Part shown: positions 11,329-47,687 of the stretch, piece after piece
Layout: every line of letters starts with the position of its first letter
How positions within the stretch are numbered: the stretch's first letter is position 1
Source of the DNA: an uncultured Jatrophihabitans sp.
Lineage (GTDB): Bacteria > Actinomycetota > Actinomycetes > Mycobacteriales > Jatrophihabitantaceae
DNA: 64,000 bases
Reading direction: 5' to 3'
Assembly: GCF_964244045.1 (NCBI RefSeq)
Contig: NZ_CAXTHK010000004.1
Coordinates: 36,731 to 100,730, forward strand
The notes under the pieces: model-generated
Told to the model about the DNA's origin: nothing
The model's database searches: none
What the model saw: the letters and a program-made list of their open reading frames with translations, nothing else
Made by a program: the position numbers and the translations under genes

Positions 11329-11393
11329 GCCCTCACTCCGTTCGGGCGGCAAAGCGCCGATGCCGACTTGTTCGCTCCGCAGGCGTCGCTCAC
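11329..11393 (-). repeat. 65-bp MIRU-like unit encoding 22-aa leader [25 protein letters not shown]
   Basis: Same length, ends and ORF architecture as the 21879-22138 units; its TGA overlaps the aroH GTG; TACGCT -10 lies 6 nt upstream. Confidence 0.9.
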
Positions 11394-11505
11394 CCCTACA
11401 GCGTAGGCGTGGCCGCACCTCCACCGCCTTGGCGCCTGTTCTGGTCGTCGACGGGCTGATTCCTGCGACCACTGCGGGCGCCAAGCGGGGGTTAGCGTTC
11501 AGGGC

Positions 11506-11940
11506 ATGACGGACGACTTCCATCCGGACCTTCCGCCGCACGCACCACTGCGGCACGTCCCGGCCGCGGACCTCGACAAAGGCACCGCGCAGACCCCGGG
11601 GATGCGCCGGCTCGCAGCGATCAGTCACGAGTCGGTCGGGTCGAACGAGCTGTGGATGGGTCAGACGCACGTCGGCCCTGCGCAGCGTTCGGGCGACCAC
11701 CATCACGGCGAAGCCGAGACCGCGATCTATGTCGTGAGCGGCAAGCCCGAGTTCGTCTTCCTGGATGCAACCTCGGGCGACGAAGTTCGCCTGCAGCCGC
11801 AATCCGGGGACTACGTATTCGTCCCGCCGTTCACCCCGCACCGTGAGGAGAACAACGATCCCGACGTCGAGGCGGTGGTGGTCATCGCGCGCAGCACGCA
11901 GGAGGCGATCGTGGTGAACCTGCCGTCGTTGCGGGGATGA
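11506..11940 (+). CDS. Cupin domain protein
   Basis: [15 protein letters not shown] and [12 protein letters not shown] cupin motifs. Confidence 0.85.
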
Positions 11941-12374
11941 CCGGCCGCGACCGCGATCAGGACGGCCGGGCGCGCAACGCTCGTCCGCGCGACGGCCTGG
12001 GTCGCCCGCTGCCCTACGGGGAGGTAGGCGTCCCCCGGGAGCCCGAGGGGGTTCGCCGCAGCCCCGACGAGACCCTGGCTGCAGCCCAGGACCTGCTGGA
12101 CCACGGGCGCCCGTTCCACGCCCACGAGGTGTTCGAGGACGCCTGGAAGACCGGGGACGACGCCGACGTCGGACTGTGGCAGGCCCTGGCTCAACTCGCG
12201 GTCGGGGTCACGCACCGACTGCGTGGCAACGAGGTGGGGGCTGCCCGATTGCTGGAGCGGGCGGCCACCGGGTTGGAGCCGTACACCGACAACCCGCCCC
12301 ACGGCATCGATGCCACCGGCCTGCGCGCGTGGGCACTCGAGCCGGTCGGCCGGGACGTGCCCAGGCTTAGATGA
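11937..12374 (+). CDS. DUF309 family protein
   Basis: [29 protein letters not shown]; ATGA-coupled to the cupin gene. Confidence 0.85.
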
Positions 12375-12381
12375 GCGACGC

Positions 12382-13218
12382 TTACCGGAGCCCATCGAAC
12401 AGGTCGTGCTCGGGCAGCGGCGCACTGGTCGTGTCGCGGACTCTGACGAACGTCTCGATGCCCATCAGCTCGGCCAGCCGCTCGACGCCCAGCTTGAGGA
12501 AGATGATGTTCTCGGTCTGGCTGGCGTGCTCGGCGAGCGAGTCGTACTTCTGCTTGGCGAAGCCCTTGGTGTCGACCCAGGTCGTGACCTCGTCGTCGGG
12601 CAGGCCCATCTCGAATACAGGCGGCTCGTCGCTGGGTTCTTCGTCCCAGTCGACGCCGAGCTCGCGCATGACCCGGCCGAACTCCTCGAACTGCGTGCGG
12701 GGCACCGTCGTCCAATAGACCTTCGCCGGCGACTCGGCAGTGTCGAGCAGGTCGAGCGCGGCGACCGTGATGCGGTGCGCCTGGATGTGGTCCGGATGGC
12801 CGTAGAAGCCGTTCTCGTCGTAGGTGACGACGACGTCCGGGCGGTAGCGGCGCATCAGATCGGCGAGCCGGGCCGCCGCCTCGTCGACCGGGATGCCCCA
12901 GAACGCCCCCGGCGCGGTGTTGGCGTCCCAGCCCATCATCCCGGAGTCGCCGTAGCCCAGCAGTTCGAGGTGGCTGACACCCAGGATCGCCGCGCTGCGT
13001 TCGAGCTCGTCGGCACGCGTCGCCACCACGGCCTGGGGATCGTGACCGTCCTCGCCGGGCTTGACGCCGCCGGGCCCGTCGCCGCACCGGCCGTCGGTGC
13101 AGGTGACGAGCACGGTACGGATGCCTTCCGCCGCGGCTTTCGCGAACACCCCTCCGGTGCCGGTGGCCTCGTCGTCGGGATGCGCGTGCACGGCCATGAG
13201 TGTGAGTTGGCGGGTCAT
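12382..13218 (-). CDS. PIG-L family deacetylase/amidase (MshB/Mca-like)
   Basis: HAHPDDE and YGHPDH metal motifs, DSGM. Confidence 0.88.
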   Translation of the reverse strand: MTRQLTLMAVHAHPDDEATGTGGVFAKAAAEGIRTVLVTCTDGRCGDGPGGVKPGEDGHDPQAVVATRADELERSAAILGVSHLELLGYGDSGMMGWDANTAPGAFWGIPVDEAAARLADLMRRYRPDVVVTYDENGFYGHPDHIQAHRITVAALDLLDTAESPAKVYWTTVPRTQFEEFGRVMRELGVDWDEEPSDEPPVFEMGLPDDEVTTWVDTKGFAKQKYDSLAEHASQTENIIFLKLGVERLAELMGIETFVRVRDTTSAPLPEHDLFDGLR

Positions 13219-13228
13219 GGGGCCAACC

Positions 13229-45278: not shown

Positions 45279-45283
45279 CGCCG

Positions 45284-45703
45284 CTACCGGACGACCGGGA
45301 TGCCCGTATGGCGCCGACGCAGCTGCTCGGCGACCACCGCAGCGCTCTCGACCGGGTCGATCGGGGTGTTGATGACGGCGTCGGCGAGCGACCACGACGC
45401 CAGCCAGCCGTCCTGCCGGCGCGCGATGAGCACCACGATCGCCGGGCAGTCCTGCAACTCGTACTTGAACTGGCGGGCCAGGCCCATGCCGCCGGTGGGC
45501 TGGGCCTCACCGTCGAGGATGGCGACGTCTACGCCGCCCTCGTCCAGCTGCTCGATGACCTGGGCGTTCGTCTCGCACTCGATCCAGTCGATGCGCCCGG
45601 TGTCGGGTGCCGGGCGCCGGCCCACCGCGCTGCGCACCGTGGCCCGCACCTCGGCGTGGTTGCTGTACACGAGAACCGTCACGCGCTCCGGCACTGTCGC
45701 CAT
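45284..45703 (-). CDS. Stand-alone receiver-like protein
   Basis: [19 protein letters not shown]; conserved position between trpD and ctaE. Confidence 0.75.
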
Positions 45704-45874
45704 AGATCCGTCCTCGTTCCAGCCGCTCGTTCCGGGGTCGAACCCTGATCGTATCGGCGCGGTCTCGCAGCACCCCACTGCCACCTTCGTGCCACCTCGG
45801 GCCACCTGCGAGCACGCTGCAACACCCCCCACCCCGGACGCCGAAGTCGCTCTTCAAGGGTTCATACTTCTGAG

Positions 45875-46498
45875 GTGACCTCGACCGCCACAGCAGCAAA
45901 CTTCGAGTCCAGCAGGGTGCACTCGCTGACGCGTCCGAACGTGGTCAGCGTCGGCACCATCGTCTGGCTGTCGAGCGAGCTGATGTTCTTCGCCGGCCTG
46001 TTCGCGATGTACTTCACTGTCCGGTCCGTGCACGCCACGGACTGGCCGATGCACCTGCCCGACGGCGAACCCATCAAGCTGAGCGTGGCCTACGCGCTGC
46101 CGTTCACGGTGATACTCGTCGCCTCGAGCTTCACCTGCCAGTGGGGTGTGTTCGCGGCCGAGAAGGGCGACGTCTACAAGCTGCGTCGCTGGTTCATCCT
46201 GACGTTCTTCCTGGGTCTTATCTTCGTGCTCGGGCAGGCCAACGAGTACCGGATGCAGTACGCCGACGGCAACACCATCAAGGCCACCGGATACGGCTCC
46301 GTCTTCTTCCTCGCGACCGGCTTCCACGGCCTGCACGTCATCGGTGGCCTCATCGCGTTCATCCTGTTCCTGATCCGGACCGCCCTGGGCAAGTTCACAC
46401 CCGCCCAGGCCACCGCGGCGATCGTCGTGTCGTACTACTGGCATTTCGTCGACGTCGTGTGGGTCGGGCTGTTCGCGGTGATCTACCTCATCCAATGA
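45875..46498 (+). CDS. ctaE: Cytochrome c oxidase subunit III
   Basis: [27 protein letters not shown]; leaderless CATACT-N6-GTG. Confidence 0.95.
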
Positions 46499-46569
46499 GC
46501 GCCGTACTCGCGCCGAGGCGCAGCCTGGGCTTGTGGACGCCGGGGACATCGACGGAAGGACAGTTGTGA
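46495..46569 (+). other. 24-aa coupled mini-ORF bridging ctaE and qcrC ([24 protein letters not shown])
   Basis: ATG 46495 overlaps the ctaE TGA; TGA 46567-46569 overlaps in-frame qcrC GTG 46566, which is preceded by GGAAGGA. Confidence 0.65.
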
Positions 46570-47489
46570 ACGACGACATTGAGGCCGGCGAGCTGGACGC
46601 TGCCGAGCTCGGCTTCGAGCCGGCTGTCTCGGCCACCGGCGCCCCCACCGCCAGGACCAGCGGCGCGACAGCTCGCGCAACCCGGTCACCACGCCGTCGC
46701 CGACGCGCACGCTCGGGTGGCGGCCTGCGGCGTCGCCTGGGCGCCGCAGCCGTCCTGATCGCCGCGCTCTGCGCGATGGGTGGCTCCTACGCGATGTTTG
46801 CCGCGTCCTCGGGCGCCGCGGGCACTGGGTCGAGCACGGCGGACATCGAGGCGGGCCGCCAGCTCTACCAGGTCGGCTGCATAACCTGCCATGGCGCCAA
46901 CCTCGACGGCGTCAAGGGCAACGGGCCCTCGATCATCGGCTCCGGCAGCGCGTCGGTCTACTTCCAGGTCTCCACCGGCCGCATGCCCCTGGCTCGCCAG
47001 GGGGCGTATGCGCCGCGCAAGGAAGCGAAGTACAACGAAACGCAGACCGAGCAGCTCGGCGCCTACATCCAGTCCGTCGGCGGCGGCCCCACCGTTCCGG
47101 TGGGCAAGCTCGAGTCCTCGTCGGCGCAGATCGGCAAGGGCGGGGAGCTGTTCCGGCTCAACTGCGCGTCCTGCCACGGCGCAACCTTCCACGGCGCCCC
47201 GCTGTCGGGCGGCAAGATCGCACCGTCGCTGCTGGACGCGAACGACAAGCAGATCTACACCGCGATGCTGTCCGGGCCCGAGAACATGCCGGTGTTCAGC
47301 GACAACACCATCACCCCGGCCCAGAAGAAGCAGATCATCGGCTACATCCAGACGCTGAAGGCGTCGCAGGACCCAGGCGGCAACGGCATCGCCCGCATCG
47401 GCCCGGTGTCCGAAGCCATCGTGATCTGGGTGGGCGGGGTCGGCGCGCTGATGATCTCGATCCTCTGGATTGGAGCACGCGCGCGATGA
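46566..47489 (+). CDS. qcrC: Cytochrome bc1 (bcc) diheme cytochrome c subunit
   Basis: CITCH and CASCH heme motifs; start placed at the RBS-preceded GTG 46566 (longest ORF begins 46533). Confidence 0.93.
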   Translation: MNDDIEAGELDAAELGFEPAVSATGAPTARTSGATARATRSPRRRRRARSGGGLRRRLGAAAVLIAALCAMGGSYAMFAASSGAAGTGSSTADIEAGRQLYQVGCITCHGANLDGVKGNGPSIIGSGSASVYFQVSTGRMPLARQGAYAPRKEAKYNETQTEQLGAYIQSVGGGPTVPVGKLESSSAQIGKGGELFRLNCASCHGATFHGAPLSGGKIAPSLLDANDKQIYTAMLSGPENMPVFSDNTITPAQKKQIIGYIQTLKASQDPGGNGIARIGPVSEAIVIWVGGVGALMISILWIGARAR

Positions 47490-47687
47490 GCGACGCTTGC
47501 GGAGCGAACAGTGTGATCTCGGCGGCGAAGCCGCCTATCGGGGCGAGGACGGACCCGAGCGCAGCGAGTGGTCCAGAGGAGTCCCGATGAGCGACGCTTG
47601 CGGAGCGAACAGTGTGATCTCGGCGGCGAAGCCGCCTATCGGGGCGAGGACGGACCCGAGCGCAGCGAGTGGTCCAGAGGAGTCCCG
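47486..47687 (+). repeat. Two tandem 101-bp MIRU-like units, each a 34-aa coupled mini-ORF MSDACGANSVISAAKPPIGARTDPSAASGPEESR
   Basis: Identical units at 47486 and 47587; ATGA overlaps at 47486, 47587 and 47688; GAGGAG SD before each next ATG. Confidence 0.95.

Follow-up and report, generated by a model that had tools for sequence, protein, structure and literature searches.

Mycobacterial interspersed repetitive units (MIRUs), whose architecture has been known since 1997, are units of 40 to 100 bp, dispersed or in tandem, that lie in operons and are oriented with them (Supply et al. 1997, summarized in PMC3184786 and PMC12548453). The ends of their miniature open reading frames (mini-ORFs) overlap the neighboring genes in a -4 coupling, and tetranucleotide direct repeats as well as empty and filled sites have been described (PMC3184786, PMC12548453). 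Here, a 64-kb window from an uncultured soil actinobacterium, Jatrophihabitans sp. (64,000 nt; assembly GCF_964244045.1, contig NZ_CAXTHK010000004.1, positions 36,731 to 100,730) was found to carry a family of short repeats that sit at start codons. We regard these units as probable non-autonomous insertion elements of a MIRU-like superfamily, tolerated at start codons through a translational relay. A preliminary description, made from the sequence alone, had proposed a dispersed family that inserts at start codons while the chain of -4 overlaps is kept, and the empty and filled sites, the orientation, and the spacing reported below support that proposal. The coupling architecture that it had called MIRU-like matches what the two reviews describe.

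In size, dispersal, and tandem arrangement, the window units resemble MIRUs, with eight units at four loci, including one array of four and one of two, and the unit sizes 77 and 101 nt are common to both. The 23-nt head pattern RTGAGCGACGCYTGSGGAGCGAA was matched eight times without a mismatch, when 0.00 matches are expected from shuffled sequences. Tandem Repeats Finder (TRF) reported a 65-nt repeat of 4.1 copies at 21879-22142 and a 101-nt repeat of 2.1 copies at 47484-47693. The number of units and loci, their presence on both strands, and the three sizes given in the preliminary description were thus borne out. All eight lengths (65, four times 65, 77, and twice 101 nt) are of the form 3n+2, and translation showed each unit to be an ORF (22, 26, or 34 codons) that ends in a TGA overlapping the RTG that comes next. 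The downstream gene opens with RTGAGC at three loci, again as proposed (Table 1).

Every unit lies on the strand of its flanking genes, which have a high GC content at third codon positions (GC3) and were assigned by GC3 analysis together with Pfam. To that extent the units are always oriented with the operon, as had been claimed, but the claim and the likeness to MIRUs are incomplete at two loci. The unit at 11329 lies in a divergent intergenic region ahead of aroG, where the upstream gene is not co-oriented, and it is a leader unit rather than an intercistronic relay. At the array of four, the ORF at 22139-22480 that overlaps the last unit is non-coding (GC3 of 0.51), and the true gene starts at 22206 or later in a different frame, so that there is no downstream coupling. 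The genes flanking the units are housekeeping genes unrelated to one another in function, and a ROK glucokinase gene is next after the 115-aa gene at 33504-33851. Stand-alone classical MIRU-like units were not found elsewhere in the window.

Table 1. Features of the head family in the 64-kb window
Feature	Position	Strand	Remarks
Head matches	11371-11393; 33906-33928	-	Pattern search
Head matches	21879, 21944, 22009, 22074; 47486, 47587	+	Pattern search
Single 65-nt unit	11329..11393	-	Mini-ORF with GTG start; TGA overlaps GTG of class-II 3-deoxy-D-arabino-heptulosonate 7-phosphate (DAHP) synthase gene
TACGCT, TANNNT -10-like hexamer	11400..11405	-	6 nt upstream of the GTG of the 65-nt unit
GTGAGC, start of DAHP synthase gene (aroG, 9955-11328)	11323..11328	-	3' copy of flanking direct repeat
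Possible truncated head, ATGAGCGACGCTTA (first 13-14 nt of head)	12371..12384	+	Weak, nhmmer E about 0.02-0.04
Unit 1 of 4, 65 nt	21879..21943	+	GTG overlaps TGA stop of GDSL-lipase-like lipoprotein gene 20875-21882
Unit 2 of 4, 65 nt	21944..22008	+	Head match and TRF
Unit 3 of 4, 65 nt	22009..22073	+	Head match and TRF
Unit 4 of 4, 65 nt	22074..22138	+	Terminal GTGA 22139-22142 opens non-coding ORF only
ATGAGC, start of 115-aa gene	33846..33851	-	3' copy of flanking direct repeat
Single 77-nt unit	33852..33928	-	Between SRPBCC/polyketide-cyclase-like gene 33925-34383 and 115-aa gene 33504-33851; ATGA overlaps on both sides
Unit 1 of 2, 101 nt	47486..47586	+	ATG overlaps TGA stop of qcrC (46533-47489)
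Unit 2 of 2, 101 nt	47587..47687	+	TGA overlaps ATG of qcrA (47688-48833)
ATGAGC, start of qcrA	47688..47693	+	3' copy of flanking direct repeat

Clean empty sites were found in relatives at two of the four loci, qcrC-qcrA and aroG. At the qcrC-qcrA junction, L111 and L114 (QcrA 88% and 89% identical, respectively) have overlapping stop and start codons on a single ATGAGC (...GCACG ATGAGC ACCAC...), whereas the window reads ...GCGCG ATGAGC [GACGC...CCCG ATGAGC, two 101-nt units] ACGAC.... The aroG start is empty in L116, which comes from the same sample as L111 (CGCCTACGCTGTACGG GTGAGC AGCGCACTCCCGGACCTCAGC), and filled in the window (CGCCTACGCTGTAGGG GTGAGC [GACGCC...GAGGGC GTGAGC] AGCGTGTTGCCCGACCTCAGC). 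Three more relatives are empty at aroG, where their starts are GTGAGC, GTGAGT, or GTGATT. From these empty sites it follows that the window units are precise insertions of 65 nt and of two times 101 nt at start codons. The flanking hexamer, which had been likened to a target duplication, is a direct repeat of 4 to 6 nt at GTGAGC or ATGAGC. Precise excision between direct repeats would yield the same empty sites, and the direction of each event is unproven.

In the closest relative, L113 (QcrA 91% identical), the qcrC-qcrA junction holds a short degenerate unit of 35 nt. Spacers of 35 nt (3n+2), each a 12-codon relay ORF, occupy this junction both in L113 (788-825), where a degenerate head is recognizable, and in L112 (9966-10003), where it is not. 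It seems that this junction either is hit repeatedly or is a place where units decay. For the SRPBCC gene, 42 metagenome relatives were obtained, and none of the 40 orthologous junctions examined carries a unit; most have another downstream gene and hence provide no exact empty site. L100 was considered as a third empty site, for the junction at 33852, and was rejected as not syntenic. On its reverse strand, the junction after the SRPBCC gene has a 26-nt (3n+2) tandem duplication of the stop/start region (GGGGTACTGCGATGACAATCGCGCAA and GGGGTACTGCGTTGA side by side), which forms a 9-codon relay ORF and contains no element sequence. Stop/start junctions can therefore duplicate alone while keeping the frame rule.

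For the wider search, one genome per species was scanned with TGAGCGACGCNTGNGGAGCGAA, which gave at least 110 loci. Together with the window, these contain 164 heads (at most three mismatches) in 117 arrays, the set to which the following counts refer. Counted from record titles, the matches listed comprise 35 loci in Jatrophihabitans or Jatrophihabitantaceae, 35 in Mycobacterium or Mycolicibacterium, 29 in unclassified metagenome-assembled genomes (MAGs) of Actinomycetota, 8 in the Pseudonocardia group, and 1 each in Geodermatophilaceae, Catelliglobosispora, and a Planctomycetota MAG. Identical 22-mers occur in several actinobacterial families. The window QcrA is at most 91% identical to any record, with Jatrophihabitans as the nearest named relatives, and the best DNA match to the window among the loci fetched was a Jatrophihabitans MAG (72 to 77% identity). 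In the DNA metagenome runs X1 to X4, related 101-nt units were present at other loci, and no copy-number joints were seen. Head matches in PLSDB plasmids and INPHARED phages were at chance level, and IMG/VR gave no exact head match.

The arrays are far from random in orientation and in spacing. Flanking coding sequence was co-oriented in 90 cases and opposite in 13 on the upstream side and co-oriented in 100 and opposite in 7 on the downstream side. The first triplet of the array is ATG in 65, GTG in 39, and CTG in 13, and in about 75 arrays a co-oriented ORF of high GC3 ends exactly in the TGA of the head. An upstream stop within the head is combined with a coupled coding ORF downstream in 44 arrays, 19 more are coupled downstream without an upstream gene, about 11 to 17 are in-frame N-terminal extensions of the downstream gene, and 7 to 9 of the CTGA type follow a gene end and are coupled to nothing. 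In 66 of 87 arrays, the 5' TGA and the 3' TGA are preceded by an identical base (A/A 45, G/G 13, C/C 8), compared with about 43% expected from the margins, and GC follows the 3' NTGA in 40 of 87. These values are consistent with target duplication over 4 nt (NTGA), RTGAGC being the preferred site.

The 65-nt unit is the most frequent (38 instances), and units of 74, 77, and 101 nt were found repeatedly. Of the tandem spacings, 25 are of the form 3n+2, 19 of the form 3n, and only 3 of the form 3n+1. The preliminary rule that every length is 3n+2 therefore holds for all eight window units but not for the family, where 3n units and untranslated CTGA-type units exist; the rule at family level is 'not 3n+1'. 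Such a rarity of 3n+1 is what selection on the reading frame would leave. Short units of 30 to 35 nt consist of the head plus 6 to 11 nt. Those of 33 nt are read in frame into the downstream gene, as in L108 with five copies ahead of a beta-glucosidase, and 32-nt CTGAGC units lie 3' of stop codons and have no start codon. Copy number varies from 1 to 3 at orthologous sites, and units at the obgE-proB and nuo-like junctions are kept across several Mycolicibacterium genomes. Among three Mycobacterium-group genomes, L082 has a full 65-nt unit at the obgE-proB junction, and L031 and L076 have versions of 33 to 36 nt in frame with proB. As judged from these sequences, units may decay in place through frame-preserving internal deletions.

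The unit consists of three parts. The first is the 24-nt head RTGAGCGACGCNTGCGGAGCGAAY, which holds the stop TGA of the upstream gene and the RTG of the mini-ORF, and the second is a variable middle, at times with a perfect hairpin. The third is a 3' domain, in which an outer stem surrounds a GA-NN-GNA-NN-GA hairpin, with a purine-rich, Shine-Dalgarno-like tract and the terminal RTGA. In the window, the GA-NN-GNA-NN-GA motif occurs inside the eight units only, always on the sense strand. For eight units of the 101-nt class, RNAalifold gave a central hairpin with an 8-bp outer stem and an inner hairpin. The outer stem pairs AU(N6) with (N6)AU, of which the last two bases are the first two of the next start codon. 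In this class, 92.2% of the cells are paired, compared with 26 to 47% for slid partners, both partners have changed in 11 pairs, and the covariation score is 0.30 compared with at most 0.08; none of 500 shuffles reached these values. Among 23 distinct 65-nt units of the Mycobacterium type, 94.4% of the cells are paired (20 to 54% for slid controls), and the next start codon covaries with an internal CAY (CAU...AUG 17, CAC...GUG 5, U.G 1). Conserved base pairing takes in the next start region, and the covariation supports a 3' hairpin that would bury the ribosome-binding region and the start codon of the next cistron. The conserved hairpins of the 65-nt and 77-nt classes in the window (GCCC-GA-AC-GGA-GU-GA-GGGC and (U/C)GGCC...CC-GA-GC-GNA-GC-GA-GG...GGCC(A/G)) contain a GAGG tract and end 0 to 1 nt short of the RTGA.

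The 24-nt head can be folded as ((..((..((....))..))..)), with G.A/A.G in each internal loop, so that G-C pairs alternate with tandem G.A. This hairpin is supported by the variable position 12, which falls in the loop, and by position 1, which is associated with position 24 (R1/Y24: A/T 43, G/C 35, A/C 19, G/T 2; Fisher 9e-11). The preliminary description had left open whether the shared N-terminus reflects a peptide function or a DNA/RNA motif. If the units encoded functional micro-proteins with the N-terminus MSDACGAN, for example regulatory or membrane peptides, the repeat would be due to peptide selection. All window units are indeed intact ORFs, and the two commonest variable head positions are synonymous third positions (GCN Ala and AAY Asn). 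However, the remaining five third-codon positions of the head are invariant, position 12 is where the hairpin has its loop, and positions 24 and 1 covary. The C-terminal halves are wholly different between classes, and their variation tracks base pairing instead of amino acid similarity. Moreover, the head is equally conserved in the CTGAGC units 3' of gene stops, which have no RTG (13 arrays). Since the head is kept in units that lack a start codon, the conserved entity is a nucleotide motif and not a peptide. The evidence thus favors a nucleic acid motif; the micro-protein explanation is very improbable, and the mini-ORF peptide is probably incidental.

In the pairing tables of the 101-nt and 65-nt classes, G.U pairs are more numerous than A.C pairs (about 22 and 6, respectively). 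This excess and the tandem G.A, which would be C.U on the other strand, assign the structure to the sense strand. It might act in mRNA or as single-stranded DNA. In mRNA, the units could be cis-acting elements that benefit the host, such as mRNA stabilizers, processing sites, or expression-tuning hairpins comparable to the repetitive extragenic palindromes (REPs) of intercistronic regions, which the host would have recruited and maintained instead of only tolerating selfish insertions. The strand-specific conserved structure with compensatory changes, the 22-mers shared between families, and the positions kept between species (the obgE-proB and nuo-like junctions in Mycolicibacterium) are in line with such a role. 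However, the flanking genes are functionally unrelated housekeeping genes, close relatives differ in presence or absence at one junction, the 40 orthologous SRPBCC junctions have no unit, and copy number at orthologous sites ranges from 1 to 3. We consider a host-beneficial role unlikely to be the explanation; it and the favored one are not mutually exclusive.

Very stable DNA mini-hairpins, for example d(GCGAAGC), typically have C-GNA-G triloops with sheared G.A. The hairpins might act as DNA, in single-strand elements of the REP or IS200/IS605 kind that an HUH/Y1-type enzyme mobilizes in trans; features related to translation would then be survivors of selection. The C-GNA-G triloops and the CTTG/CCTG loops flanked by tandem G.A are a lead in this direction. 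A hairpin at each end without terminal inverted repeats, a tetranucleotide target (NTGA), and a strand-specific structure would agree with it, and end hairpins and the NTGA target would also fit IS200/IS605 elements (palindrome-associated transposable elements, PATEs), which have subterminal hairpins and a Y1 HUH transposase and insert 3' of a fixed tetra- or pentanucleotide. However, the concordant N at both ends argues for duplication and suits it better than the duplication-free insertion of IS200/IS605. Orientation tracks the gene strand on both strands of the window, as selection at the RNA or translational level predicts; the cumulative GC skew falls almost throughout the 64 kb, which was read as one replication arm. 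The excess of G.U over A.C is compatible with RNA, and no transposase candidate was found, although none was searched for. Single-strand DNA elements of this kind are thus a doubtful account of the units.

In actinobacteria, leaderless mRNAs are frequent and the spacing from the -10 element to the transcription start is established. A TANNNT hexamer lies 6 to 8 nt before the RTG in 13 of the 41 arrays that have no upstream gene ending in the head, in none of the 76 others, and in 0.2% of the background. The aroG unit of the window is one of the 13 (TACGCT, a 6-nt gap, and GTG), and the hexamer is also present at the empty site of L116. A scan of the aroG leader for promoters and terminators of the Escherichia coli type found nothing; TANNNT was tested separately. 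This distance, together with the known spacing and the abundance of leaderless mRNAs, is most simply read as placing the first base of TANNNT-preceded units at the transcription start. What the two kinds of target (-4 overlaps and putative leaderless starts) have in common is that initiation is independent of an upstream Shine-Dalgarno sequence, so that the initiation context survives an insert placed directly at the RTGA. In L082 (1-100), a classical 53-nt MIRU ahead of ndk is preceded by TACGCT plus 7 nt. The leaderless association may thus extend to classical MIRUs.

The relation to classical MIRUs was examined with two of them. MIRU292 of Mycobacterium avium subsp. paratuberculosis (PMC7977185), when oriented, is a 53-nt (3n+2) unit, ATGAC TCGCGCCGACGACGATGCAGAGCGCAGCGATGAGGAGGAGCGGCGCAG ATGA. 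It is colinear with the 3' domain of the 101-nt unit of the window (23 of 30 identical, shuffle p of 0.006), ranks 3 of 2001 against the 3'-domain profile, but at only 4.2 bits, and folds into the same outer stem and GA-GC-GCA-GC-GA hairpin. In Mycobacterium sp. shizuoka-1, a classical 53-nt MIRU before ndk (L082:44-96) and a 65-nt unit of the head family lie in the same 8-kb locus. The 24-nt head is absent from both of these MIRUs. Judged from this co-residence, the likeness of the 3' domain to MIRU292, and the absence of the head from both MIRUs, the head family and the classical MIRUs appear to be sister lineages that reside together and have the 3' module and the logic of insertion in common, the head being the distinctive part. 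The comparison covered these two MIRUs, and some other catalogued subtype, for example type I or type III of Mycobacterium tuberculosis, may carry the head. Further differences are the host, which in the window is a relative of Jatrophihabitans and not a Mycobacterium, the spread of the head family over several actinobacterial families, and its short head-only units of 30 to 35 nt.

The family had been called distinct and possibly undescribed. In support of this, no Rfam family was found at the unit loci, neither at the gathering score nor at E<=1, the 15-mers of the head occurred in no open paper text searched, and a word search of the literature for elements resembling MIRUs in other actinobacteria gave no relevant paper. 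Text matches to 'MIRU' in a Saccharothrix genome paper were rejected, as they are really 'mirum'. On the other hand, the family is distinct only as a probable sister lineage of MIRUs, with which it appears to have the 3' domain in common.

Other known systems share some of these features. REPs and bacterial interspersed mosaic elements (BIMEs) of enterobacteria and pseudomonads are likewise short structured extragenic repeats in operons, with strand-specific hairpins, no mobilization genes of their own, and a possible role in mRNA stability or intercistronic expression. However, REPs are not ORFs, have no start/stop overlap, often form inverted pairs, and are linked to REP-associated tyrosine transposases (RAYTs), whereas the head-family units are direct tandem repeats, with a single inverted pair (in L062). 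Miniature inverted-repeat transposable elements (MITEs), such as the Correia elements of Neisseria, are similarly small, non-autonomous, dispersed, bounded by short direct repeats, and co-transcribed with their neighbors. Unlike MITEs, the window units have no terminal inverted repeats, and their 3' end covaries with internal positions instead of mirroring the head; insertion is tied to a translational signal, RTGA, and length is constrained by the reading frame. Short relay ORFs that act by termination-reinitiation (PMC12548453) have the same AUGA/GUGA overlap and a start occluded by structure that a ribosome can open. Here, the relay is carried by a repeated, insertion-polymorphic cassette instead of having evolved in place, and it can be chained, as in the four units at 21879.

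The explanation that we favor, a relay-tolerated insertion element, can be set out as follows. An element would insert at NTGA, preferably RTGAGC, in a start codon that overlaps a stop codon or is leaderless, leaving a copy of the tetranucleotide on each side. Local multiplication into tandem arrays would proceed by slippage or by unequal exchange between units bounded by RTGAGC. The interrupted start site would still initiate in its old context, now on the mini-ORF, and a ribosome translating it would melt the 3' hairpin and so expose the buried ribosome-binding region and start codon of the next gene, before terminating at the UGA and reinitiating 4 nt back on the host gene. With such tolerance, selection would retain only co-oriented copies, of length 3n+2 (acting as a relay) or 3n (extending the N-terminus in frame). 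The peptide would be a by-product and the conserved head a nucleic acid signal for a putative factor. We hold it to be rather unlikely that the head is the recognition site of a protein conserved across Mycobacteriales, either a single-strand DNA transposase or an RNA-binding factor, and that the family, including the classical MIRUs, is a distinct class of mobile element that homes to Shine-Dalgarno-independent initiation sites with its own structured reinitiation module.

Several points weigh against this explanation. Translation of the mini-ORF, reinitiation, and folding in RNA are all steps that we infer; no RNA run matched the qcr region of the window, and the depth over the unit of Mycolicibacterium rhodesiae (L026) was zero in three soil metatranscriptomes. 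The folding energy of single 65-nt and 77-nt units is no better than that of shuffles (z of +1.3 to -0.5), as is also the case for the isolated 24-nt head, and the inner pairs of the head hairpin are invariant and hence beyond covariation. Both the concordance of NTGA between the 5' and 3' ends and the R1/Y24 association could partly reflect subfamily inheritance. Since the related loci were gathered by exact head match, the conservation of the head in this set is partly built in. The relay chain at 21879 ends without a coupled gene. Finally, no mobilizing enzyme was found, no search having been aimed at transposase candidates.

Some further features were noted. The possible truncated head ATGAGCGACGCTTA at 12371 overlaps the TGA that ends the DUF309 gene (11937-12374), in the gap between this gene and a convergent PIG-L deacetylase gene, and may be a remnant of a head. 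In the Planctomycetota MAG (L062:367-627, JBGAOR010000034.1), two facing 40-nt copies, each the head plus 16 bases (GTGAGCGACGCTTGCGGAGCGAACCACGGGTAACGAGAGG), are separated by about 260 bp, and a long perfect hairpin lies in the interval. The pair separates the stops of two convergent genes, one PitA-like, with its TGA in the left head, and one msrAB-like, and the inner part of the inverted repeat had no match in metagenome contigs. The arrangement in L062 resembles a palindrome of the MITE type and would place the element outside Actinomycetota, unless the contig was mis-binned. Elsewhere in the window, a cyclic di-AMP (ydaO-type) riboswitch is present at 40234-40401 (-) with 72 bits, where the matching region of the syntenic L111 and L112 is an NlpC/P60 gene, and a cobalamin riboswitch match at 63343-63457 (-), with 39.7 bits, exceeds the gathering score. 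Unrelated to the units are the tandem repeats at 6579-6726 and 8061-8212 (periods 15, 30, and 45 nt; CTGCTGTCCGTAGGG and its relatives), which we guess to be coding repeats on the minus strand.

In general, the units constitute a real, well-behaved MIRU-like family, whose host range is wider and whose anatomy is clearer than was accessible before. MIRUs are used worldwide for tuberculosis typing, and the family offers handles on their movement and role. This probable sister lineage is abundant, with four loci in 64 kb, and extends the MIRU phenomenon well past Mycobacterium. It provides precise empty and filled sites and an apparently shared, structured 3' domain backed by covariation, and it links insertion to two kinds of start that do not depend on a Shine-Dalgarno sequence, -4 overlaps and putative leaderless starts. 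In practice, gene callers misplace starts near units, as in L116, where the start called for aroG is 5' of the GTGAGC indicated by the alignment with the window. With its invariant 24 nt, the head offers a bait for the factor that mobilizes or reads the elements, and as natural, portable cassettes the units lend themselves to tests of termination-reinitiation.

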